Assembly (NCBI GenBank): GCA_913020445.1
Contig: CAJWAR010000002.1
Span: 20,275-84,274, forward strand
DNA: 64,000 nucleotides
Source of the DNA: an uncultured Rhodospirillaceae bacterium
GTDB lineage: Bacteria; Pseudomonadota; Alphaproteobacteria; Rhodospirillales; UBA2165
Reading direction: 5' to 3'
The notes beneath the pieces were generated by a model that searched no databases, was not told the DNA's origin, and worked only from the letters and a program-made list of their open reading frames with translations. This document shows positions 14,639 through 60,844 of the stretch, one piece after another. The position numbers were made by a program, and so were the translations under genes. Positions within the stretch are counted from its first letter, which is position 1; each line of letters begins with the position of its first letter.

Positions 14639-14727
14639 AATTAAGGGGACATATAATTAAGGGGACACGATACTTAATTAAGAAAGTTATGAATTGATGT
14701 TAATTAAGTATCGTGTCCCCTTAATTA
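14639..14727. repeat. Perfect 28-bp inverted repeat with 18-bp spacer plus a partial third copy (REP/REPIN-like)
   Basis: TAATTAAGGGGACACGATACTTAATTAA at 14654-14681 and its exact reverse complement at 14700-14727; partial AATTAAGGGGACA at 14639-14651. Confidence 0.85.
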
Positions 14728-14740
14728 ACTGGCTGTACAC

Positions 14741-14790
14741 TTGACAATGTAATACAGTTACTTTACTTATGTAAAATGTATGTTTTACAT
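14741..14790 (+). promoter_or_regulatory. mazEF promoter (-35) and putative autorepression operator
   Basis: TTGACA at 14741-14746; palindrome ATGTAAAA-N6-TTTTACAT at 14769-14790 just before SD TAAGGAG. The -10 element is not clear. Confidence 0.6.
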
Positions 14791-14804
14791 TAAGGAGCTA
14801 CGCC

Positions 14805-15050
14805 ATGATTACCGCGAAACTTTCAAGCAAATATCAGGCTGTCGTGCCCCTCGCTGTTCGGCAATTATTAGAAATCGAGCCGGGTGATGAAATCGCTTAT
14901 GAAATTGAGGGTGATGCCGTCTCTTTACGCAAACTTGGCCGCAAAAATCCTCAAGCCTATCAGTTAGATGATTTGGTTGGCGCGATTACGCCCGATAATT
15001 TACCCGAAGATAATTTTGACGATAGCCCTCAAGGATCTGAGTTGCTGTAA
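14805..15050 (+). CDS. mazE: AbrB/MazE/SpoVT-family antitoxin
   Basis: AKLSSKYQAVVPLAVRQLLEIEPGD AbrB fold; C-terminal LDDLV..ITPDN...G.ELL typical of MazE; overlaps the toxin start. Confidence 0.85.
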   Translation: MITAKLSSKYQAVVPLAVRQLLEIEPGDEIAYEIEGDAVSLRKLGRKNPQAYQLDDLVGAITPDNLPEDNFDDSPQGSELL

Positions 15051-15385
15051 TGGCGGTGCCGGATCAAGGGGATCTCGTTTGGGTGGATTTCAATCCGCAA
15101 GCGGGTCATGAACAGTCAGGACGCCGCCCTGCTCTCGTGCTTTCACCAAAAGCCTATCACGAAAAAACCAATTACGCCGTTGTCTGCCCAATCACCTCGA
15201 CCGTCAAGGGCTACCCGTTCGAAACCACTTTGCCGACTGGCTTGGTAATTTCAGGCGCGGTGCTCGCTGATCAAGTTAAAAGTATCGACCGCAATGTCCG
15301 TAATCTGGAAATCGCCGACCGGGCGCCACCTGACATACTCAGCGATGTCTTGAGCAAAATTTCTGCGCTGTTGGATTTAAGTTAA
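15050..15385 (+). CDS. mazF: MazF/PemK endoribonuclease toxin
   Basis: GDLVWVDFNPQAGHEQSGRRPALVLSP, CPITS, KGYPFE, LADQVKSID. Confidence 0.95.
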   Translation: MAVPDQGDLVWVDFNPQAGHEQSGRRPALVLSPKAYHEKTNYAVVCPITSTVKGYPFETTLPTGLVISGAVLADQVKSIDRNVRNLEIADRAPPDILSDVLSKISALLDLS

Positions 15386-16201
15386 TCAGACATTTGGCAG
15401 TTGCTCCGCTAGCCTCCCACCTACCCGGATCGGCTCGAAGCGGGAGGCGAGGCCGGTTTCATCATCAGTTTCGAGATACACACCGCACACCGTCGCTTCG
15501 CCTTCGGCAGGAGATAACCTCTCGCCCGGCATAACTTTCTTAAAGCGGCCAATGGCCGCATCCGGCTTCATACCGATCACCGAATCATAGTCACCGCACA
15601 TGCCAATATCTGTTTGATAAGCCGTGCCACCGGGCAGGATTTGCGTGTCCGCGGTTGGAACATGCGTATGCGTGCCGACGACCATTGAGACCCGGCCATT
15701 GAGATATTGCCCGACCGCCATTTTTTCAGAAGTTGCCTCGGCATGGATATCAACCACCGCGCAATCGACCGCATTACCTAATTTAATTTTCGCCAGCTCA
15801 TTATCAATAGAGACGAACGGATCGTCGAGACTATCCATGAAGAGGCGGCCCATAATCTGGCCAACGAAGACTTTGGCGCCATTGCGGGCTTCAAACACCC
15901 CTGCCCCGTTGCCGGGTGTCAGTTCGGGATAATTGATCGGACGCAACAAACGCGGCTCTTCATCGATATAGGTGATGATTTCTTTCTGATCCCAGGCATG
16001 ATTGCCGGTCGTAATAACGTCAACACCGAGCTCGAAGAACCGGCGGCAGATTTTTTCCGTGATGCCAAAGCCATGGGCGGCGTTTTCGCCATTGACGATA
16101 ATGAAATCAGGGGCGAGCCTGTCAACCAGCATCGGCAGATGCTGTGCCAGGCCGGTCCGACCCGACTTTCCCAAAACATCACCTAAGTAAATCAGCCTCA
16201 T
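15386..16201 (-). CDS. YmdB/TIGR00282 family metallophosphoesterase
   Basis: GDV.G..GR, NGENAAHG.G, TTGNH, DIHAEATSEK, GTHTHV.TAD. Confidence 0.95.
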   Translation of the reverse strand: MRLIYLGDVLGKSGRTGLAQHLPMLVDRLAPDFIIVNGENAAHGFGITEKICRRFFELGVDVITTGNHAWDQKEIITYIDEEPRLLRPINYPELTPGNGAGVFEARNGAKVFVGQIMGRLFMDSLDDPFVSIDNELAKIKLGNAVDCAVVDIHAEATSEKMAVGQYLNGRVSMVVGTHTHVPTADTQILPGGTAYQTDIGMCGDYDSVIGMKPDAAIGRFKKVMPGERLSPAEGEATVCGVYLETDDETGLASRFEPIRVGGRLAEQLPNV

Positions 16202-16815: not shown

Positions 16816-16974
16816 TGGTGACGCCGCGTGGGTCGTTACGCGTCTAATCTTCCTAGGCCGGTAGGTCTAGGTGGGCGCCGTATACCGTACCCAGGGGTAC
16901 GACAGGGACAGCTCCCGAGTAGTATGTATTGGCCCTGGAGATTTACCACACTTCACGGGCCCCGCAGCGTCAAT
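16816..16974 (-). ncRNA. ssrS: 6S RNA
   Basis: Conserved position between zapA and the cyclo-ligase. Closing stem GACGCUGCG/CGCGGCGUC; GGGAGCUGUCCCUG and GGCGCCCACC motifs typical of alphaproteobacterial 6S. Ends approximate. Confidence 0.9.
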
Positions 16975-29575: not shown

Positions 29576-31330
29576 GTGTCAGAACGAACACATAGTTACG
29601 AAATATATGTCCACCAGAAAGGTCGATGGGAACTTCATGCGCGACACGCCTTGAACAAGCGTGACGCCGCGCTTGAAGAAGCAAAATCTCTGAAAAATAT
29701 TCCGTCTATTCAAGAAGTTAAAGTCGTCCATGACGTGTTCGATACCAATCGAGGAAAAAGCAACGAAAGTGTCATTTATCGCTCCAATGAAAGCAGTTCG
29801 GCAGCTTCCTCACCAGCAAATGACGATCGCAATATTAGGCGCCACGACGATGACGACGGCGAGTATGACGATATTGATGATGAACCGCAGCCCGTCAGTT
29901 TAGGCGCCGCGGCGAGCCCTCGGAGAAAGCCAATTCAGCGAACCACGCGCAAAGTTAAAACGGGTGTTTTTACCAAACTGCTTTTACTGGCCCTTGCCAG
30001 TTTTATCATCGCCGGCATGATAACTTGGGTTATCGCTTTGGCGATTGAAGAATTACCCGAACTTAAAGGCTGGATCGGTCGCTCCAACTATGACGACATT
30101 CTATTTCTGATTTTTATTATCGGATTTTTACTCAGTATTTCAACTTCGGCTTTTGCCTTTTTGACAAAAGAAGAGCTTGCTGGCGAAGTCCATGTCAAAG
30201 AGATGGAGGACAGCGAACAAAGAAAGTGGGCTCGAGCGATGGCGCCGCCCAAATTAACCCCCAAACAAAGGCGCGCCTTGGAACGAGCTAACGCCAGACG
30301 ACTTGAAGAAGCGAATGCCGAATTTTTTGATGGCGACGAGAATGAAGGAGGGGCTGATAACCTCGACGATGTCCTGGCCGCCTCAGAAGGGGGCGAGGCT
30401 CCTCCAGAAGATGTCAAACTAACCATCGGGGCCGAAAAACAAAAAGTAAATGTCATGACCTTTCTCAGCAAAGGTTTGGAATCCGTCATGGCAACTCGGC
30501 CAAAATTGGATTCATTTAATAAGTTTGGCGTTAATTTGTATTTGGCAGGTGCCTGTGAAACTGTCGGCATTGAGGAGAATTTGAATGACGACGAAATCCG
30601 CCAAATTCTGATCGACAGCGTTGGTGTTTTAGGCACCAAGCCGGAACAGGCCATTATGTTTGCCGAAAAGTATGACGAATACCTGATGAACCCAAAATAT
30701 CTCGGCATGATCGAAAATGGCCGCTCCGCGATGAACGCTCAGGTCAACGGTGATCCTGACGCCGCCCAAAAACTTGATAAAGCCATGGATTAGTGGAACA
30801 GCAAGAAAGTCGAAGATGAAACTTCTGTCGGTACTATTGCTGTGATGTTTACCGACATTGTCGGTTCAACTGATATGACGCAGACGCACGGTGATGCGGC
30901 GGCCCAGGAAGTTGTCAGAACTCACAATCGCATTGTCCGCAATGCCCTGACGACGTATCAGGGGCGTGAGGTAAAACATACCGGTGACGGTATTATGGCG
31001 TCTTTTAATAACACCGCCAACGGCGTCTCAGCGGCCATCTATATTCAGCAAAAAACGGCTGAAAATAACTCTTCAAACCCCGACGTACTGCTGGGTATTA
31101 AAATTGGTATTAATGCCGGCGAACCGATTGTTGAAGACGATGATTTATTTGGCACTACCGTGCAGTTATCTGCCCGCATTGTCGACAAAGCGGGCGACAA
31201 AGAAATCTTTGTATCTGAAATTGTTAAAGGTATTTGCCTTGGTAAAGACTTCAATTTTGAGTCTCGCGGCGCCCGTGAAATGAAGGGCTTCAAGGATCCG
31301 ATTACACTTTACGAAGTTTTGTGGCAGTAG
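29576..31330 (+). pseudogene. Membrane-anchored class III adenylate/guanylate cyclase interrupted by one in-frame TAG (30791-30793)
   Basis: ORFs 29537..30793 and 30842..31330 are in the same frame and read LDKAMD*WNSKK...IAVMFTDIVGST; cyclase motifs VKHTGDG, DLFG.TV..SARI, KGF. GTG start after GGGAG. Confidence 0.75.
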
Positions 31331-31380: not shown

Positions 31381-31499
31381 AAAAAAATTGGGGCGCCGTT
31401 TGCGGCTGCCCCAACTAATGCATTCCCTGTTAAACTCGCCCGTTTAAAAATGCACGGGAAATGTACCTAAGACCTGTTCATCAGGTCAAGAGGTCAATC
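31381..31499 (-). ncRNA. Candidate sRNA B (~120 nt)
   Basis: Minus-strand TTGAAA-N17-TGTAAT promoter (31534-31506), two hairpins, linker GAGUUUAACAGGGA, GC-rich terminator + U7 with no minus-strand CDS to terminate. Confidence 0.55.
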
Positions 31500-31645
31500 T
31501 CATTTATTACAAAAAAAATATATTGCTTTTTCAAAAAAAATTTTATCAGAATTCTAGTGTTGGTCTTTAAAGCACTGCTTCTTTGACAAACTAAGCAAGG
31601 CTAAATATTCTGCTGGCTTGATTATCACCGAATTGGAACAGACCA

Positions 31646-32506
31646 ATGATTGTTCTCAAAGACCTTTGCTATATTCGATTGGGTACTGAAGATTTAGCGG
31701 GTGCCGAGCAATTTACGACTAATATTGTCGGCCTTCAGGCAATCCGGAAATCTGCTGACCGTCTTTATCTCCGCAGCAATTACCGGGATCATACATTGTG
31801 CTACTTCAAAGGTGATCCGTCTGATCACATGGTTGGCATTGAACTGAAAGACTGGCTTGGCCTTGAAGCAGCTATGTCATCTCTTGAAGCGGCGGGATAT
31901 CCCTGTACCCGGGGAACTAAGGACGAAATTGAAGATCGCTCGGTTGAAGATTTCTGCTGGTTTAAAGACCCGACTGGAAATCGCATTGAACTCGTCATCC
32001 GTCCACACGACGCCAACCGCCGCTACTTTCCATCGCGCGATGCCGGCGTGGTCGGCCTTGGACATATTGGCTTGAATTCTACTGACCCGGCGCGGGACGA
32101 AGCGTTTTGGACGACCTACTTCAATATTAGAGTGAGCGATTGGATCGGCGAATGCCCGCTTTTGAGAATGAAAGATGTACATCATCAGATCGCCCTTTTC
32201 CCGACCACCAAGCCGGGCGTTCAACATATCAATCATCAAGTTGAAGATATCGATGATGTTATGCGGTCGTGGTATTTCCTCCAGGAGCAGCAAATCAAAA
32301 TAGTTTTCGGCCCGGGACGCCATGCAACTTCGGGCGGCTACTTTCTTTATTATGATGGCCATGATGGCATGGTGTTTGAGTATTCGAATTCTGATCGATT
32401 TATCATTGAAGATGATGAAAATTATCGTCCCCGGCAATTCCCGATGTCGGCGGAATCTTTTTGCGTCTGGGGGAGTAAACCCGATATCCCCGAATTTCAG
32501 GCCTGA
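31646..32506 (+). CDS. Two-domain VOC extradiol ring-cleavage dioxygenase (CmtC-like)
   Basis: YIRLGT..., F.DPTGNRIEL, GHIGL, HHQIAL, QHINHQV, GPGRH..SGG.FLY, FEYS (His/His/Glu metal triad). Confidence 0.82.
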   Translation: MIVLKDLCYIRLGTEDLAGAEQFTTNIVGLQAIRKSADRLYLRSNYRDHTLCYFKGDPSDHMVGIELKDWLGLEAAMSSLEAAGYPCTRGTKDEIEDRSVEDFCWFKDPTGNRIELVIRPHDANRRYFPSRDAGVVGLGHIGLNSTDPARDEAFWTTYFNIRVSDWIGECPLLRMKDVHHQIALFPTTKPGVQHINHQVEDIDDVMRSWYFLQEQQIKIVFGPGRHATSGGYFLYYDGHDGMVFEYSNSDRFIIEDDENYRPRQFPMSAESFCVWGSKPDIPEFQA

Positions 32507-32517
32507 TCAGCGCCAAC

Positions 32518-32602
32518 AAAAAAAGCCGCTCCTAATTTGGAGCGGCTAGAGTTTAACAGGGAGGTGTCATAGTCTTCATTTGAAAGAAGGGAACCTATGA
32601 CA
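32518..32602 (-). ncRNA. Candidate sRNA A (~85 nt) with anti-SD CCUCCC motif
   Basis: 5' stem UGUCAUAG/CUAUGACA, single-stranded CCUCCCUGUUAAACUC, terminator AGCCGCUCC/GGAGCGGCU + U7. Confidence 0.7.
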
Positions 32603-32625
32603 GCTTGCAGAATATCCCGGGCGCA

Positions 32626-32641
32626 TTAAAACTTCGTTAAC
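32626..32641. promoter_or_regulatory. CtrA-type binding box upstream of candidate sRNA A
   Basis: TTAA-AACTTCG-TTAAC exactly matches TTAA-N7-TTAAC, about 25-40 nt upstream of the predicted 5' end; TATTCT could be the -10. Confidence 0.6.
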
Positions 32642-32700: not shown

Positions 32701-32883
32701 TTATTTCTTAAACACGTCTTCCGCACCGGCCCGGGCTTTTTGCTTTAATTCGATTTCCACTTCAACACGCTTAATTTCGGCCTGAAGTTCTTCAATATAT
32801 TCGCCAAGCGCTTCAATCGACATAACCTCGAGGTCTTTAATCTCCGGCTTTTTTACAATTGGTTCCAGATCATCTGTATCCAT
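32701..32883 (-). CDS. DUF1192 family protein
   Basis: MDTDDLEP...DL..MSIE.L.EYI..L.AEI.R...AE.VFK. Confidence 0.85.
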   Translation of the reverse strand: MDTDDLEPIVKKPEIKDLEVMSIEALGEYIEELQAEIKRVEVEIELKQKARAGAEDVFKK

Positions 32884-34513: not shown

Positions 34514-35056
34514 TTAGACCTTGAGAGCTTGCGCAATTACCCAGATTAATTTTCTCCCGTTTTCAGACAAATCTCCTGATACTGCTTCGAGATAATTAAC
34601 CGTACTCGTCTCAGCTATTTGAACGCAGCCTGCTAAATCTAGCGCATTAATTGTTGGCGGTTGGGAAAACTCACGTTGGCCGGACTGGTAGAGAATCCCC
34701 TGTTCTATTTTTTCACCATCAAGTTCACAACTCTTAATCGCCTGACGTAACTCATCAGATAGTTCGCCAAAATTAATTGACTGGTTCTGTTTCATTTCTT
34801 GCCTGATCTGGCGAAGCCGTTGCACCACACCAGTTTGCCAAGGCTCGATGACAGCCATAATTTCCACCAACTCGGCTTTCTCAAGTATTTCGGCCCGTTC
34901 AACAGCCACCCAGCAGCAATAGAGTACGATATTAACATCGGCGCCAAATTGATCTTGCAGTTTCAAACAGGCGTCTGCCACGCCTTCCCGGCCATAAAAA
35001 TCTAGCGAGAAATTCCAAAATGGATTGTCTTCCATCACGTGATTTGATTCGCTCAT
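34514..35056 (-). CDS. TIGR02444/DUF2390 family protein
   Basis: FW.FSL.FY...GVA.ACL.LQD..GADVN..L.C.W; W...VV..LR..R; EL..E..EQ. Confidence 0.85.
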   Translation of the reverse strand: MSESNHVMEDNPFWNFSLDFYGREGVADACLKLQDQFGADVNIVLYCCWVAVERAEILEKAELVEIMAVIEPWQTGVVQRLRQIRQEMKQNQSINFGELSDELRQAIKSCELDGEKIEQGILYQSGQREFSQPPTINALDLAGCVQIAETSTVNYLEAVSGDLSENGRKLIWVIAQALKV

Positions 35057-35066
35057 TTGGTTTCCA

Positions 35067-36200
35067 TTAATTGCCTAAAGATATGCCGAGCCCGCGCGCC
35101 GTCTGCACCAATGTATCTGTAATATCGACTTCACGGGTGCGCGATGTTACTTCTTCCAACGGCAGATCAACAACTTGGCGATGTTGCCAGGCGACCATGC
35201 GACCATTTTCACCGCTGGCTAAAAGATCTACTGCGCGCACGCCAAAGGCCGAGGCAATAATCCGGTCGTGACTGTTTGGTATACCGCCGCGCTGAACATG
35301 GCCCAATATCGTCACCCGGGTTTCGGTGCCGGTCGCCACATTAATCTGTTCGCCCAATTGATGGCCGATGCCGCCATAGCGCTTCTGGCCGTCGCTGTGC
35401 TCGGCCATCACCGCTTCACCATCCGCTGGACGCGCCGCCTCCGAGCAAACGATCAACGCGTGATCCCGTCCCTGCTCGTGCAATGCTTTTATTTTATTGG
35501 CAATCGGCTCCAGGCGATACGGAATTTCCGGAATCAAAATGACGTCGGCACCGCCGCCAATGCCGGCATTGAGCGCGATGTGCCCGGCATCCCGGCCCAT
35601 CACTTCCAAGATCATCACCCGCTCATGACTTGCGGCCGTCGGCTGCAAGCGATCCAGCGCCTCAACGGCAGTACTCACGGCAGTTGAAAAACCGACAGCA
35701 AATTCAGTAAGCGGCACATCATTGTCGATGGTTTTAGGGACGCCGATGAAGTTAATACCGCCCAGTTTGGTCAGGCGATTAAGGATATCGAGGCTGCCAT
35801 CACCGCCGATTCCAATCAAACCATCGAGTTCCAATTCCTTAAAACCAGCAGCAAATTCCTTCGCGCGGTTTTTTCTGGTGCCGTCCGGCATCGGAAAATC
35901 AAATGGATCACCTTTGTTCGTCGTGCCTAAGATGGTGCCGCCCATGCGTAAAACATTGCCGGTGAAAAGTTTGAGCGTGAGCTCTTCATATCGCGGTGGG
36001 CTGTCCATCAGCCCTCGGGTACCATCGTGGATACCAAGGACACGCCAGCCATAACCCTGAATAGCACGATGCGTCACCGCTCGGATAACCGCATTTAAAC
36101 CGGCACAATCGCCCCCGCTCGTCAACACGCCGATGGTTTTTCCAGGGGTGTTTCCGGGGGTGTTTCCGGGGGTGTTTTTTGTCGAACTATTTTTGACCAC
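35067..36200 (-). CDS. pfkA: 6-phosphofructokinase (group III / mixed-substrate type)
   Basis: TSGGDCAGLNAVIR, GGTILGT, GGDGS, PKTIDND, EVMGR.AG, LGHVQRGG. Confidence 0.93.
   Translation of the reverse strand: MVKNSSTKNTPGNTPGNTPGKTIGVLTSGGDCAGLNAVIRAVTHRAIQGYGWRVLGIHDGTRGLMDSPPRYEELTLKLFTGNVLRMGGTILGTTNKGDPFDFPMPDGTRKNRAKEFAAGFKELELDGLIGIGGDGSLDILNRLTKLGGINFIGVPKTIDNDVPLTEFAVGFSTAVSTAVEALDRLQPTAASHERVMILEVMGRDAGHIALNAGIGGGADVILIPEIPYRLEPIANKIKALHEQGRDHALIVCSEAARPADGEAVMAEHSDGQKRYGGIGHQLGEQINVATGTETRVTILGHVQRGGIPNSHDRIIASAFGVRAVDLLASGENGRMVAWQHRQVVDLPLEEVTSRTREVDITDTLVQTARGLGISLGN
36139..36174. repeat. 12-bp in-frame tandem repeat x3 at the pfkA 5' end
   Basis: TTTCC(A/G)GGGGTG x3, encoding TPGN-TPGN-TPGK on the minus strand. 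Confidence 0.85.
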
Positions 36201-54774: not shown

Positions 54775-57426
54775 CTACGCCGAAGCGCTAATCGCTTCTT
54801 CGATTGCATTAATGGCCGCCTCAGCATTGCCGCCATCGGGACCGCCAGCCTGGGCCATATCGGGGCGGCCACCGCCGCCTTTACCGCCGACCGCCTCGGA
54901 GCCGGCGCGCACCAGATCGACAGCGCTTAAACTTTCAGCCAGATCATCCGTCACACCTACCACCAGAGACGCTTTACCGTCATTAACACTGATCAAGGCA
55001 ACGACACCCGAGCCGACTTGTCCCTTAAGATCATCGGCCAGGCTTTTGAGATCTTTAGCCGGCACACCATCCAGGGTCTTGCCGGCAAATTTAATGCCAT
55101 TGATATCTTTTATATCTGAGGCGCTTCCTTCGCCGCCGCCGGTCGCCAGTTGACGTCGCAGCTCGGTGATTTCTTTTTCCAGTTTGCGGCGCTCATCAAG
55201 CAAGCTTTCGATGCGGCCCGGCACATCCGCTGGAGACACTTTTAAGACCGCCGCCGCATCGCTTAACGCCTTGGCTTCATCCGCTATATAGCTTTCAGCC
55301 GCCGCACCAGTGACCGCTTCGATGCGCCTGACACCTGCCGCAACGGCACTTTCGGAGACAATCCGAACCAAACCGATATCGCCCGTGCGGCGCGCATGAG
55401 TACCGCCGCAAAGCTCGGTCGAATAGGCTTCATTACCGCCCGACGTCCCCATCGCGACAACACGCACTTCGTCGCCATATTTCTCACCGAACAAGGCCGT
55501 GGCGCCGGCTTCAATCGCTTCATCCGGGGTCATCAGGCGGGTTGACACTTCGCTGTTATCCCTGACCTGGATATTGACCTGATCTTCAACGATAGAAAGC
55601 TCTTCCGCCGTCATGGCTTTGGGATGAGAGATATCAAAACGCAACCGCTCGCCAGCTACCAAAGAGCCTTTCTGGGCGACGTGATCACCGAGCTCGTTGC
55701 GCAAAGCCGCATGCAGCAAATGGGTTGCCGAGTGATGCGCCCGGAGCGCCGAACGGCGCGTGTGATCAACCTCCAGGAGAACGTCATCACCGACTTTGAG
55801 ACCGCCACCCGAAAGCGTGCCGAGGTGAACATGAAGATCACCGAGTTTCTTTTGAGTTTCGGTAATGCTTACGCTGGCGCCGCCCTCAATGGAAATCACG
55901 CCGGTGTCGCCTTCCTGACCACCGGACTCACCATAAAACGGGGTTTGGTTAAGGATAAGAGCAATCTCCGCGCCATCGGTTGCTTCGTCAACGACTTCCC
56001 CGTCTACGACCAGTGCAGTGATCTGGCCCTCCGCACTTTCAACCTCATAGCCCAAAAAATCAGTGGCGCCGGTTTGTTCGCGAATATCGAACCAGACTTG
56101 TTCGGTCGCCGCATCACCCGAGCCCGACCAGGCCGCCCTGGCATCGGCACGCTGTTTTTCCATCGCCGTATTGAAGCCGTCAAGATTAACACTAAAGCCC
56201 TGGCCGCGGAGCGCATCCTGGGTCAGATCAAGCGGGAAGCCGTAAGTATCATAAAGTTTAAACGCGACCTCGCCCGGCAACTCGCCACCAGCCGGTAACT
56301 TTTCAGTTTCTTCTGCTAACAATCCAAGACCGCGATCAAGCGTGCGCTTGAAGCGATTTTCTTCGAGTTCCAGAGTTTCCGTGATCAGGGCCTGTGCGCG
56401 GGTCAGTTCCGGGAAGGCCTGACCCATTTGCTGCACCAAGGTCGGCACCAGCTTGAACAACAGCGGGTCCTGGCAGCCCATCAGATGTGCGTGCCGCATT
56501 GCACGCCGCATGATGCGCCGGAGCACATAGCCGCGGCCTTCGTTCGACGGCAACACACCATCGGTGATGAGAAAACTGGTGGCCCTGAGATGATCAGCAA
56601 TGACCCGGTGGGATACATTGTGATCGCCCTCTGCCGGGGTGCCAGACATTTCAGCCGAGGCATTGATCAGCGCCTGGAACAAATCCGTTTCGTAATTATC
56701 ATGGGTGCCCTGCAGCACGGCGGAAATGCGCTCCAGCCCCATGCCCGTATCAATGCTGGGTTTGGGCAGATCAACACGCTCATCCGGTGTGACTTGCTCA
56801 AACTGCATAAAGACCAGGTTCCAAATCTCGATAAACCGGTCACCATCCTCGTCGGGTGAGCCGGGTGGTCCACCTGGAATATGTTCACCGTGATCAAAGA
56901 AAATCTCGGAACACGGACCACAGGGACCGGTCTCCCCCATTGACCAAAAATTATCACTGGTCGGAATACGAATTATCTTATCATCGGATAATCCGGCAAT
57001 TTTTTGCCAGAGATCAAACGCCTGATCATCTTCGGCAAAAACCGTAACCAGCAGCTTATCAGCCGGCAGACCGTATTCTTTGGTAATCAAATTCCAGGCG
57101 AGTTCGATAGCTTCATCTTTGAAATAATCGCCAAAGGAAAAATTACCCAGCATCTCAAAGAAGGTGTGGTGGCGGGCGGTGTAGCCGACATTTTCCAGAT
57201 CATTGTGTTTGCCGCCGGCGCGGACGCATTTTTGTGACGTCACGGCGCGGCTGTAGTCACGTGTTTCCTGACCGGTAAAGGTGTTTTTAAACTGCACCAT
57301 ACCGGCATTGGTAAACATCAAGGTTGGATCATTCTGCGGCACCAAGGACGAAGAAGAAACTACTTCATGACCATGCCTGGCGAAAAAATCCAAAAACAGC
57401 GTGCGAATATCGTTTGTCGACTGCAT
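54775..57426 (-). CDS. alaS: Alanine-tRNA ligase
   Basis: [63 protein letters not shown]. Confidence 0.98.
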
Positions 57427-59304: not shown

Positions 59305-60042
59305 ATGGCTAAATTTGTGTTTAGATGTCTAGTCCTTATTCTTTCGCTAATGCTCACAACAATGGCGAATAACAACCAAAAAGCATACGCGCAAGAATCT
59401 CTGGTTTTCTCCAAACCCGGACCGCTCGATTATCATGCTCAAATTTCTGAAAACATTCTAAAAGAGGCCTATGCCCGTATCGGAATTAAGGTGACCACGA
59501 TGGAATTTCCTGGCGAGAGGGCGTTACGCGAGTCTAATTCAGGCAGGGTAGATGGCGAAGTTAATCGTATTCGAGGGATCGCAAAGAAGTATCAAAGTTT
59601 GCGGATCGTTCCTGTTGCCATTAACGCTCTTAAAGGCTCGGTTTTCACGAAAAATTCTAAAATCAAGCCGACAAGTTGGAAAGACCTGAGGGCATTTAGG
59701 ATCGGCCTGCGTCAAGGAGCTAAATATGCCGAATATGGAACAACAGGGATGAATGTCATCGCAGCGGCGACAAATAAAATGGTTTTTCGCATGTTGGACA
59801 GAAATCGGATTGATGTGGCTATCAGCACTGCTTTAGAAGGCTCTAATACGATCCGGATTTTGGGGTTAAAAGGAATTTCCATGGTAGAACAACCTCTGGT
59901 CACACTAGAATTGTTTCACTTTCTTCACGAGAAGCACGAAGCCCTAATAGCGCGAATTACGAAAGCTCTAGAGGCCATGGCACGAGAAGGACGTATCCAA
60001 AATATCAGGAATAAAACCTTCGAAGAACGACCTAATAATTGA
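59305..60042 (+). CDS. Orphan periplasmic solute-binding protein (family 3-like)
   Basis: Signal peptide; L.EAY..IG, P..RAL...N.G.VDGE..RI, ML...RID, L.H.LH.KH. Confidence 0.8.
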   Translation: MAKFVFRCLVLILSLMLTTMANNNQKAYAQESLVFSKPGPLDYHAQISENILKEAYARIGIKVTTMEFPGERALRESNSGRVDGEVNRIRGIAKKYQSLRIVPVAINALKGSVFTKNSKIKPTSWKDLRAFRIGLRQGAKYAEYGTTGMNVIAAATNKMVFRMLDRNRIDVAISTALEGSNTIRILGLKGISMVEQPLVTLELFHFLHEKHEALIARITKALEAMAREGRIQNIRNKTFEERPNN

Positions 60043-60050
60043 GCGCTTTC

Positions 60051-60178
60051 TAATTTGATGTCCGCTTTGGGTCAGAAGCTGCCGAAATTTGCTGTAGGTG
60101 TTTTCGACCGCTTTCGGAGGTAGAGCGGACGTCAAATTAATCCCGTCTGATGTCGGCCATTAGCCATAATCGGACGTT
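60051..60178. repeat. Cluster of degenerate GTCCGCT...AGCGGAC palindromic repeats
   Basis: TAATTTGATGTCCGCTTT (60051-60068) pairs with AGAGCGGACGTCAAATTA (60122-60139) at 16/18; further degenerate units lie inside and at ~60149-60178. Confidence 0.65.
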
Positions 60179-60198
60179 AGTCTGAGATAAAGTGTAGA

Positions 60199-60587
60199 TT
60201 AAGGCGCATGACAGATAAGTATATGCGCTTCAACATCTATAAGAAGAGGGAGCAATTCATTTTTAGCCTAAAAAGGGTTCATATAAACCGAATGAGCGTC
60301 GGCCGCCCAAACGCCCCAGTTAGCAATAATCGCTTTGTTCGAGTTGCTCAAAGCGATCGCCACACGCTGGTCTCCGGCGCCGAGCGCAATTAGTTTATTT
60401 TTGAGGCCCGCGACGCATCTTGCCTGTTTTTGATAGATGAGAACCTCATCGTCGCATATAAGTGCGACTCGATCGGGCGCGTTCGCCGACACGTCAGCGA
60501 GTAGGCGCAATAACGTTGGAAAGTCGGGTCGCTCTCGGCCCGGCAAAGACGAAGCGGCAGGCGTGCCGATTGATATAGAGTCCGCAT
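60199..60587 (-). pseudogene. N-terminal remnant of an AMP-binding acyl-CoA ligase
   Basis: PDRVALI...Y...A..L..LG...RVAI.L.NS...MNPF*AKNELLPLL.D; in-frame TAG where Tyr is expected, probable 5' frameshift, truncated before the P-loop. Confidence 0.75.
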
Positions 60588-60844
60588 GAATTTTCCCGGT
60601 CGGCCAGTATGAAAATAGGACGCATTTAATTTAAGCTATCGATACATCGGACGCGAGGGTTACGAACTCTAAAAAACAATAATTGCACATAAAAAAATTG
60701 ATTGCTCATTAAGCAAGTAAACGATAACCTCTCCATGGCGTATTGAAAAGATATTTTATAGCAAAATTTGGGGTGTTTCAGAGTATTGGTCACCTTAATT
60801 TTACGCTGAAAAAGTTTACCTTATAATGGAAAGAATTGGCTCCG

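Follow-up and report, generated by a model that had tools for sequence, protein, structure and literature searches.

QrrX with Qrr1-4 and SroC with GcvB are bacterial systems in which one sponge RNA acts against one sRNA, or against a family of siblings, through pairing with the seed, as set out in PMC13501541. In Caulobacter crescentus, PMC12559287 describes a purine-rich RNA, CrfA, that is complementary to the anti-Shine-Dalgarno (anti-SD) core of four dispersed sibling sRNAs, SisA-D, with a terminator after the seed and with Hfq present. Here we describe a locus that shares these features, in a 64,000-nucleotide stretch of DNA from an uncultured Rhodospirillaceae bacterium (the window, to which all coordinates refer). 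Two predicted minus-strand RNAs follow a DUF1192 gene: RNA A, with an anti-SD seed, and RNA B, with its complement. We consider it probable that RNA B is a separately transcribed tandem sponge that pairs with the seed of RNA A, a likely CtrA-activated sRNA of the BjrC1505 type, and with its siblings, and on our best reading it would work like CrfA with SisA-D.

The locus also differs from these systems. The sequences and taxa of QrrX/Qrr1-4 and SroC/GcvB are unrelated to RNA A and RNA B, and SroC is a processed mRNA fragment, whereas RNA B has a predicted promoter of its own. Compared with CrfA, RNA B is shorter (about 74 nt against a model of 136 positions), does not match the CrfA model RF01527, and lies directly behind one of its partners, with which it co-varies across orders. 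Compared with SisA-D, RNA A has the seed CCUCCCUGUUAAACU and not the 10-mer of the alpha-r8 family, and it has a CtrA-type box, whereas PMC12559287 found no motif in common upstream of sisA-D.

Organization of the locus

On one strand the module consists, in order, of the DUF1192 gene, a TTAA-N7-TTAA promoter, RNA A, a separate sigma-70-type promoter and RNA B (Table 1); trcR is divergent, beyond the DUF1192 gene. The original prediction had pointed to exactly complementary 14-nt segments, each before a GC stem and a U7 run, and this is borne out on the minus strand. Both 14-mers lie directly 5′ of such a stem (32547-32524 in RNA A, 31414-31388 in RNA B), and the exact repeat cannot be extended. 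The RNA B stem was seen by folding, having been overlooked by the terminator scanner that detected the RNA A stem. Each RNA folds better than 200 of 200 shuffles. A longer, bulged pairing into the 5′ stem of RNA A, also proposed originally, does not hold up: it is seen in duplexfold alone, a prediction that takes no account of intramolecular structure; neither cofold structure contains it, and it is not conserved, with only 14 of 81 orthologous pairs reaching −6 kcal/mol in the extended register.

Table 1. Positions and strands of the features at the RNA A and RNA B locus.
Feature	Position in window	Strand	Evidence or remark
DUF1192 gene (60 aa), conserved upstream anchor	32701..32883	-	Pfam PF06698, E 5.6e-14
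TTAA-N7-TTAA box, CtrA full-site type, over RNA A -35 region	32626..32640	-	
Predicted RNA A -10 hexamer, 11 nt after box	32609..32614	-	
RNA A, about 85 nt: variable 5′ stem, single-stranded anti-SD seed, terminator	32518..32602	-	fold z -6.3; 5′ end inferred from promoter
RNA A seed CCUCCCUGUUAAACUC (14-nt complement 32562-32549)	32549..32564	-	core common to three sibling loci
RNA A intrinsic terminator, 9-bp stem and U run	32518..32547	-	
Extradiol-dioxygenase-like gene (286 aa), between RNA A and RNA B, outside module	31646..32506	+	PF00903
Predicted sigma-70-type promoter of RNA B, TTGACC-N18-TACATT	31460..31489	-	
RNA B, about 74 nt, putative sponge: anti-seed, A/U-rich linker, terminator	31381..31454	-	fold z -4.5; 5′ end inferred
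RNA B anti-seed GGCGAGUUUAACAGGGA (exact complement 31437-31424)	31424..31440	-	covariation with RNA A
RNA B terminator hairpin and U7	31381..31414	-	+ strand side without U run
Class III nucleotide-cyclase domain ORF, convergent neighbour downstream of RNA B, outside module	30842..31330	+	PF00211

Taken by itself, the 14-nt repeat could be a chance match: the genome has 51 exact inverted repeats of 14 nt or more whose arms are separated by 200-1500 nt (0.78 per 64 kb), and the window has 5. The repeat rises above chance because of its conservation and covariation, which are treated below. The four other exact inverted repeats of the window (14-15 nt; 14678-15543, 34733-35783, 55712-56435 and 59484-60800) are without flank similarity and are probably due to chance.

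Some neighbouring features may be recorded here. The dioxygenase-like gene fails to reach the cut-off of any of four NCBIfam dioxygenase models. At 30791-30793 an in-frame stop splits the cyclase-domain ORF from a 418-aa upstream ORF (window 30791-30841); the same frame is continuous in the relatives L159 and L045, which suggests a recent nonsense change or an assembly error here. A gathering-level Rfam scan of the whole window gave only 6S RNA, at 16817-16973 on the minus strand (72.1 bits).

RNA A as a positional orthologue of BjrC1505

Searched against Rfam, RNA A gives only matches below gathering. It aligns through its seed and terminator to BjrC1505 (RF02356; 27.3 bits, E 0.011), SorX (22.4 bits) and suhB/MmgR (21.4 bits). 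The match to BjrC1505, the best of them, covers the full length of the model and stays under the gathering cut-off of 50 because the 5′ stem differs. Among the loci that do exceed the RF02356 cut-off, 7 of 10 have a DUF1192 gene on the same strand upstream, within the 1.5-kb flank, as does the window; RNA A, judged by synteny, is therefore the positional orthologue of BjrC1505. The two also have in common a TTAA-N7-TTAA-type upstream region, which in BjrC1505 falls within the Rfam model, and the conserved CCUCCCUGUU seed followed by a terminator. They differ in the 5′ stem, and the accessible sources mention no partner RNA for BjrC1505, which was detected as an RNA by northern blot in Methylorubrum (10.1101/2022.01.24.477521). 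The Rfam model of BjrC1505 seems to start at the CtrA-type promoter box, and its first 40-45 positions may be promoter; the BjrC1505 RNA itself is therefore probably shorter than 140 nt.

RNA A is not a member of the alpha-r8/MmgR/SisA family (RF00519), as core, score and synteny all show. The family core is the 10-mer UUUCCUCCCU as defined in PMC12559287, and RNA A has CACCUCCCU in that place. It scores 21.4 bits against a cut-off of 41, which no match in the genome exceeds. The alpha-r8 genes usually adjoin a gene for N-formylglutamate amidohydrolase (FGase) according to the same paper, and the neighbour of RNA A is DUF1192. SorX (RF02784) and MmgR/SuhB share with RNA A and its siblings a related CCUCCCU seed followed by a terminator and match them weakly, but all of these matches are below gathering. 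SorX is derived from a response-regulator 3′ UTR, that of RSP_0847 (PMC13501541); RNA A has a predicted promoter of its own behind DUF1192, and its SorX score compares with a cut-off of 46.6. CC3552 (RF01529) was rejected as the Caulobacter counterpart of RNA A: its sole match over cut-off is at an unrelated locus without DUF1192. In family f32 (L112, L119, L144, L155 and L175) the A-like RNA behind DUF1192 lacks an exact TTAA-N7-TTAA box, is not accompanied by RNA B and has a different seed that resembles the alpha-r8 core more closely, which may hint at a link between BjrC1505 and alpha-r8.

RNA A is likely to be a CtrA-activated sRNA, to judge from its promoter region. An exact TTAA-N7-TTAA lies at most 140 nt upstream of the seed in 73 of the 81 loci that have both RNAs, against 0 of 484 background windows. 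Of the 73 boxed loci, 48 have TAnnnT 11 nt after the box, and 6 more have CAnnnT. A TTAA-N7-TTAA box with its 5′ end near -35 to -39 is the geometry of CtrA-activated promoters in PMC4287350, and RNA A shows this geometry relative to its inferred start site. The genome encodes CtrA (NF045991, 418 bits against a cut-off of 350) and Hfq. Genome-wide, TTAA-N7-TTAA occurs 58 times against 67-139 times for spacings of 5, 6, 8 and 9, which fits avoidance of a functional site. The RNA A seed is predicted to be unpaired with a probability of 0.92. A scan of 2553 candidate starts for mRNA targets of RNA A gave a best value of −21.9 kcal/mol, with no clear gap and no outlier.

RNA B and its predicted promoter

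RNA B was originally proposed to begin near 31499 with a 5′ hairpin. That hairpin lies in the 18-nt spacer of the predicted promoter (31489-31460), and in the three closest relatives it is weaker or missing altogether; RNA B therefore probably extends over about 31454-31381 (~74 nt). In 43 aligned A-B regions, TTGAC is at least 90% conserved and is followed 17-18 nt later by a TAnnnT-like hexamer; the strict promoter pattern matches in only 26 of 81 loci, though TTGAC itself is conserved. Over 63 orthologues the sole consensus structure is the terminator; its stem covaries, two-sided changes being seen at 8 of 8 pairs. The consensus leaves the anti-seed unpaired, and the only conserved single-stranded part of RNA B is the complement of RNA A. 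In this genome the anti-seed is partly folded into a weak hairpin, with a probability of being unpaired of 0.43. Partial tandem copies of the RNA B motif GGCGA(G/A)TT are found upstream of the main anti-seed in L041 and L114 and hint at extra binding sites.

RNA B is present in a single strong copy in the genome and belongs to no Rfam family: it has no match above gathering and none meaningful below. It is not CrfA, for whose model (RF01527) the genome has 0 matches at E<=5, while a Caulobacter control scored over cut-off. Searches of the open-access literature showed no description of RNA B or of the tandem, though subscription papers and supplements could hold one, and the accessible parts of PMC13501541, PMC7143759, PMC3616915 and 10.64898/2025.12.09.693200 mention no partner RNA of this kind. 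RNA B is apparently an undescribed, new RNA family.

We also considered whether the RNA B region might be a plus-strand inverted paralogue of RNA A, might belong to the cyclase gene as its 3′ UTR, or might act in cis as a leader of the gene downstream. The plus strand does contain the RNA A seed and does fold (z -3.0), and the next gene lies on the RNA B strand in 23 of 75 scorable loci. The polarity of promoter and U run is, however, that of the minus strand, and by a crude ORF call the gene after RNA B is convergent in the other 52 of 75. Since this gene varies between lineages in orientation and identity, RNA B is not a fixed UTR. True siblings, moreover, carry seed and then terminator on one strand, which RNA B does not, and a plus-strand copy would predict A-C and not G-U departures from perfect pairing, contrary to what is described below. 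We regard such a reading as very improbable, and a minus-strand RNA B remains our preferred interpretation.

Conservation behind DUF1192

For conservation in the order we used the DNA downstream of DUF1192, a sample not selected on the feature. It comprises 159 loci in 30 families among the matches listed, this genome included, with 26 further matches and a few listed ones left out. Because most regions span only 1.5 kb and some matches were left out, absences are upper bounds. Both RNAs are found in 81 loci (19 of 30 families), RNA A only in 14, RNA B only in 8 and neither in 56, of which 37 are in families f21, f24 and f5. Two of the B-only loci need qualification, one (L078) being probably a false call and another (L044) having a degenerate RNA A; of five B-only genomes tested, four have a seed-bearing locus elsewhere. 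For the divergent RNA B of genome G028, the predicted exact partner was not found in that genome, whose seed-bearing loci pair with it only imperfectly, and G027 gave no match to the same partner pattern.

The two seeds are 106-232 nt apart in 74 of the 81 loci, with no gene between them, and in the other seven the gap is 441-3959 nt long and its contents differ. A dioxygenase gene lies between RNA A and RNA B in only 3 of 81. Since the gaps are mostly gene-free and the dioxygenase occurs in three, it is a lineage-specific insertion into an older module. The alternative that the 14-mers bound such an insertion as its footprint, or match by chance, is thus refuted: the frequency of comparable repeats in the genome favours chance, but 19 families and genomes of other orders retain the pair, in most cases with no gene inside it. 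The terminator of RNA A, the promoter of RNA B and the inserts of 441-3959 nt in seven loci argue for pairing in trans.

Covariation of seed and anti-seed

Complementarity between the two RNAs is kept, and the compensatory changes named beforehand as the decisive test strongly support a locally encoded sRNA with a complementary anti-sRNA. We tabulated six inner positions in 68 pairs of equal length (408 cells), setting aside 13 of 81 pairs for unequal length. The cells comprise 362 Watson-Crick pairs, 38 G-U, 0 A-C and 8 others. Three positions show two-sided swaps: T:A to A:T in 2 families, T:A to C:G in 2, A:T to G:C in 2 and C:G to T:A in 4. In L028 both seeds carry a matched 1-nt insertion. 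Shared GC drift could account for the swaps that are transitions; it explains neither those that are transversions nor the matched indels. Perfect pairing also has exceptions: A:G in 5 loci, the 13 of 81 pairs of unequal length, and L316, which has one A-C and whose RNA A pairs better with 51 of the 73 other RNA B sequences than with its own.

An independent count over 43 MAFFT-aligned A-B regions found 91.5% of cells paired, against 24.5-50.2% in slid controls, and 12 two-sided cells against 4.7 in shuffles (0 of 500 as many). Two further measures from this count were not significant, namely pairs with a two-sided change (186 of 500) and further pair types (48 of 500). With one representative per lineage, cognate partners paired better than swapped ones; z was about -9, and 0 of 2000 permutations were as good in each of 100 draws. 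The 33 lineages comprise 19 families, which are not wholly independent of one another, and 14 genomes of other orders. RNA B adds GAGG after a short bulge in 35 of 81 loci (9 families), able to pair with the CCUC at the start of the seed, and in 49 of 81 the pairing of RNA B overlaps the RNA A terminator stem by at least 2 bp.

The tolerance of G-U together with the absence of A-C indicates RNA pairing on the given strand, which also pairs better than the opposite strand in 57 of 95 cases, against 15. This bears on whether the 14-mers might be oppositely oriented DNA sites of one protein, co-varying with its specificity and without any RNA duplex. Binding sites for a single factor would change in concert from lineage to lineage, and the motif does occur at 4-5 places in the genome. 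DNA sites give no reason, however, for preferring G-U over A-C on one strand (38 against 0; 57 against 15 of 95), all copies are immediately 5′ of terminators and not at promoter positions, and BjrC1505 is itself a detected RNA (10.1101/2022.01.24.477521). We find protein sites highly unlikely and return to the RNA duplex. At the level of sequence comparison, covariation shows that pairing has been selected; it is symmetric as to which RNA is the controller and as to inactivation versus stabilization. RNA B thus has the property expected of a sponge, complementarity to an sRNA seed that is maintained by selection.

Sibling loci

The original prediction treated RNA A as an orphan, which it is not: besides its orthology to BjrC1505, it has three siblings in the genome. 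The seed core recurs at sites on contigs C5, C18 and C69, each time directly before a terminator-like hairpin and a U run, and RNA B is the only copy of the motif that is antisense relative to its terminator. The cofolding gain with RNA B is 19.6 kcal/mol for RNA A and 15.7, 19.7 and 18.4 kcal/mol for the siblings, with 0 of 200 shuffled RNA B sequences as good in each case. RNA A thus stands as a pairing partner of RNA B, as had been proposed, while the restriction to RNA A falls away: the prediction is that RNA B pairs with all members of the sibling family. Of 201 genomes of the order, 121 contain matches to the seed pattern, frequently at two or three places apart from each other. Overlapping matches inflate the raw counts; the reversed pattern, used as a control, gave close to none.

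A phasin-linked locus on C12 does not pair with RNA B, 129 of 200 shuffles being as good. At this locus (around 77275 in genome G000; L341) the motif CCUCCUCCCUGUU precedes a long hairpin and may represent a 3′-UTR-derived relative of the family; the flanking ORFs we take from their translations to be phasin-like and PhaC-like. The sibling on C18 (around 23103; L338) lies behind a LysR-like gene, matches suhB below gathering (23.4 bits) and has a distinct 5′ hairpin motif that also occurs in two distant genomes of the class (L328 and L334); it is possibly a separate conserved subfamily. The seed of the C5 sibling (around 29466; L340) lies ~37 nt past the stop of a same-strand 154-aa ORF, which suggests a 3′-UTR-derived sRNA.

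Occurrence beyond the order

A scan of 185,579 genomes with the RNA B promoter and anti-seed alone gave 113 matches, a set that overlaps the DUF1192 sample. An RNA A seed lies upstream on the same strand in 81 of the 113, and 64 of these 81 have DUF1192 in the flank. The 80 matches listed of the 113 are mostly metagenome assemblies of Rhodospirillales, and the non-alphaproteobacterial ones among them are without RNA A. A single viral match to the pattern, which is neither preceded by RNA A nor followed by a terminator, seems to be due to chance.

Class-wide, RF02356 scores over cut-off in 10 of 151 genomes. Of 29 non-self loci, 11 have a B-like element after RNA A; 6 of these are among the 10 over-cut-off BjrC1505 loci, the other 4 of which are without RNA B. 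The 11 elements, from other orders, were picked by eye with the complementarity in view. A covariance model of RNA B yielded new full-length matches, of which 7 were examined. Three have RNA A 146-184 nt upstream, with matching changes, and of the remaining four, three lie directly behind DUF1192 without RNA A and one has neither. Partial matches below about 30 bits are mostly matches to the terminator and were not counted. In the three genomes with RNA A upstream, which are out-of-sample and from other orders, the cognate RNA B comes 2nd, 1st and 1st when 73 distinct RNA B sequences are ranked as partners. In L308, L311, L314, L321, L327 and L330 a BjrC1505-like RNA A is followed by an ORF that we take from its translation to be rcdA-like, and RNA B is usually missing; L169 has both.

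Discussion

We propose a mechanism in which high CtrA~P would switch on transcription of RNA A, a likely cell-cycle-controlled regulator that, together with Hfq, would repress mRNAs at purine-rich ribosome-binding sites. RNA B, made from a housekeeping-type promoter, would mimic such a site and occlude the RNA A seed; in most relatives it would also pair into the base of the RNA A terminator stem. Seed occlusion and pairing at the terminator base would favour displacement from Hfq and decay, and RNA B would thereby set a threshold or an off-switch for RNA A and its siblings.

The two RNAs might instead pair with another logic, in which RNA B is an effector titrated by RNA A, or the duplex stabilizes or stores RNA A. 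The symmetry of the covariation leaves room for this, as do the promoter and terminator of RNA B and its persistence behind DUF1192 where RNA A is missing. Against it, the anti-SD motif of RNA A is common to the mRNA-repressing sRNAs SorX, MmgR and SisA, and RNA A has several siblings, while RNA B is single-copy and has as its only conserved single-stranded part the complement of RNA A; four of the five B-only genomes retain a seed-bearing locus elsewhere. We judge this other logic unlikely and favour RNA B as the sponge.

More tentatively, and with somewhat less than even confidence, the module may be an ancient two-gene RNA switch over much of Alphaproteobacteria, in which a CtrA-driven anti-SD sRNA is followed directly by a sponge that also titrates the siblings and pries open their terminator stems, giving the cell-cycle regulator a built-in post-transcriptional threshold. 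If so, it would have been missed because it is best kept in uncultured marine lineages.

The bacterial sponge RNAs cited here were found experimentally, species by species, as far as the accessible parts of the sources describe; here genome sequences suffice to reveal an sRNA-sponge pair. Compensatory changes over 33 lineages are direct evolutionary evidence of a selected sRNA-sRNA duplex, and the natural variants already specify compensatory mutant pairs. The long-known but uncharacterized BjrC1505 gains a likely regulator, CtrA, and a likely antagonist, RNA B. Our findings suggest that CrfA-type control of sibling sRNAs with the CCUCCCU seed either arose more than once or is class-wide.
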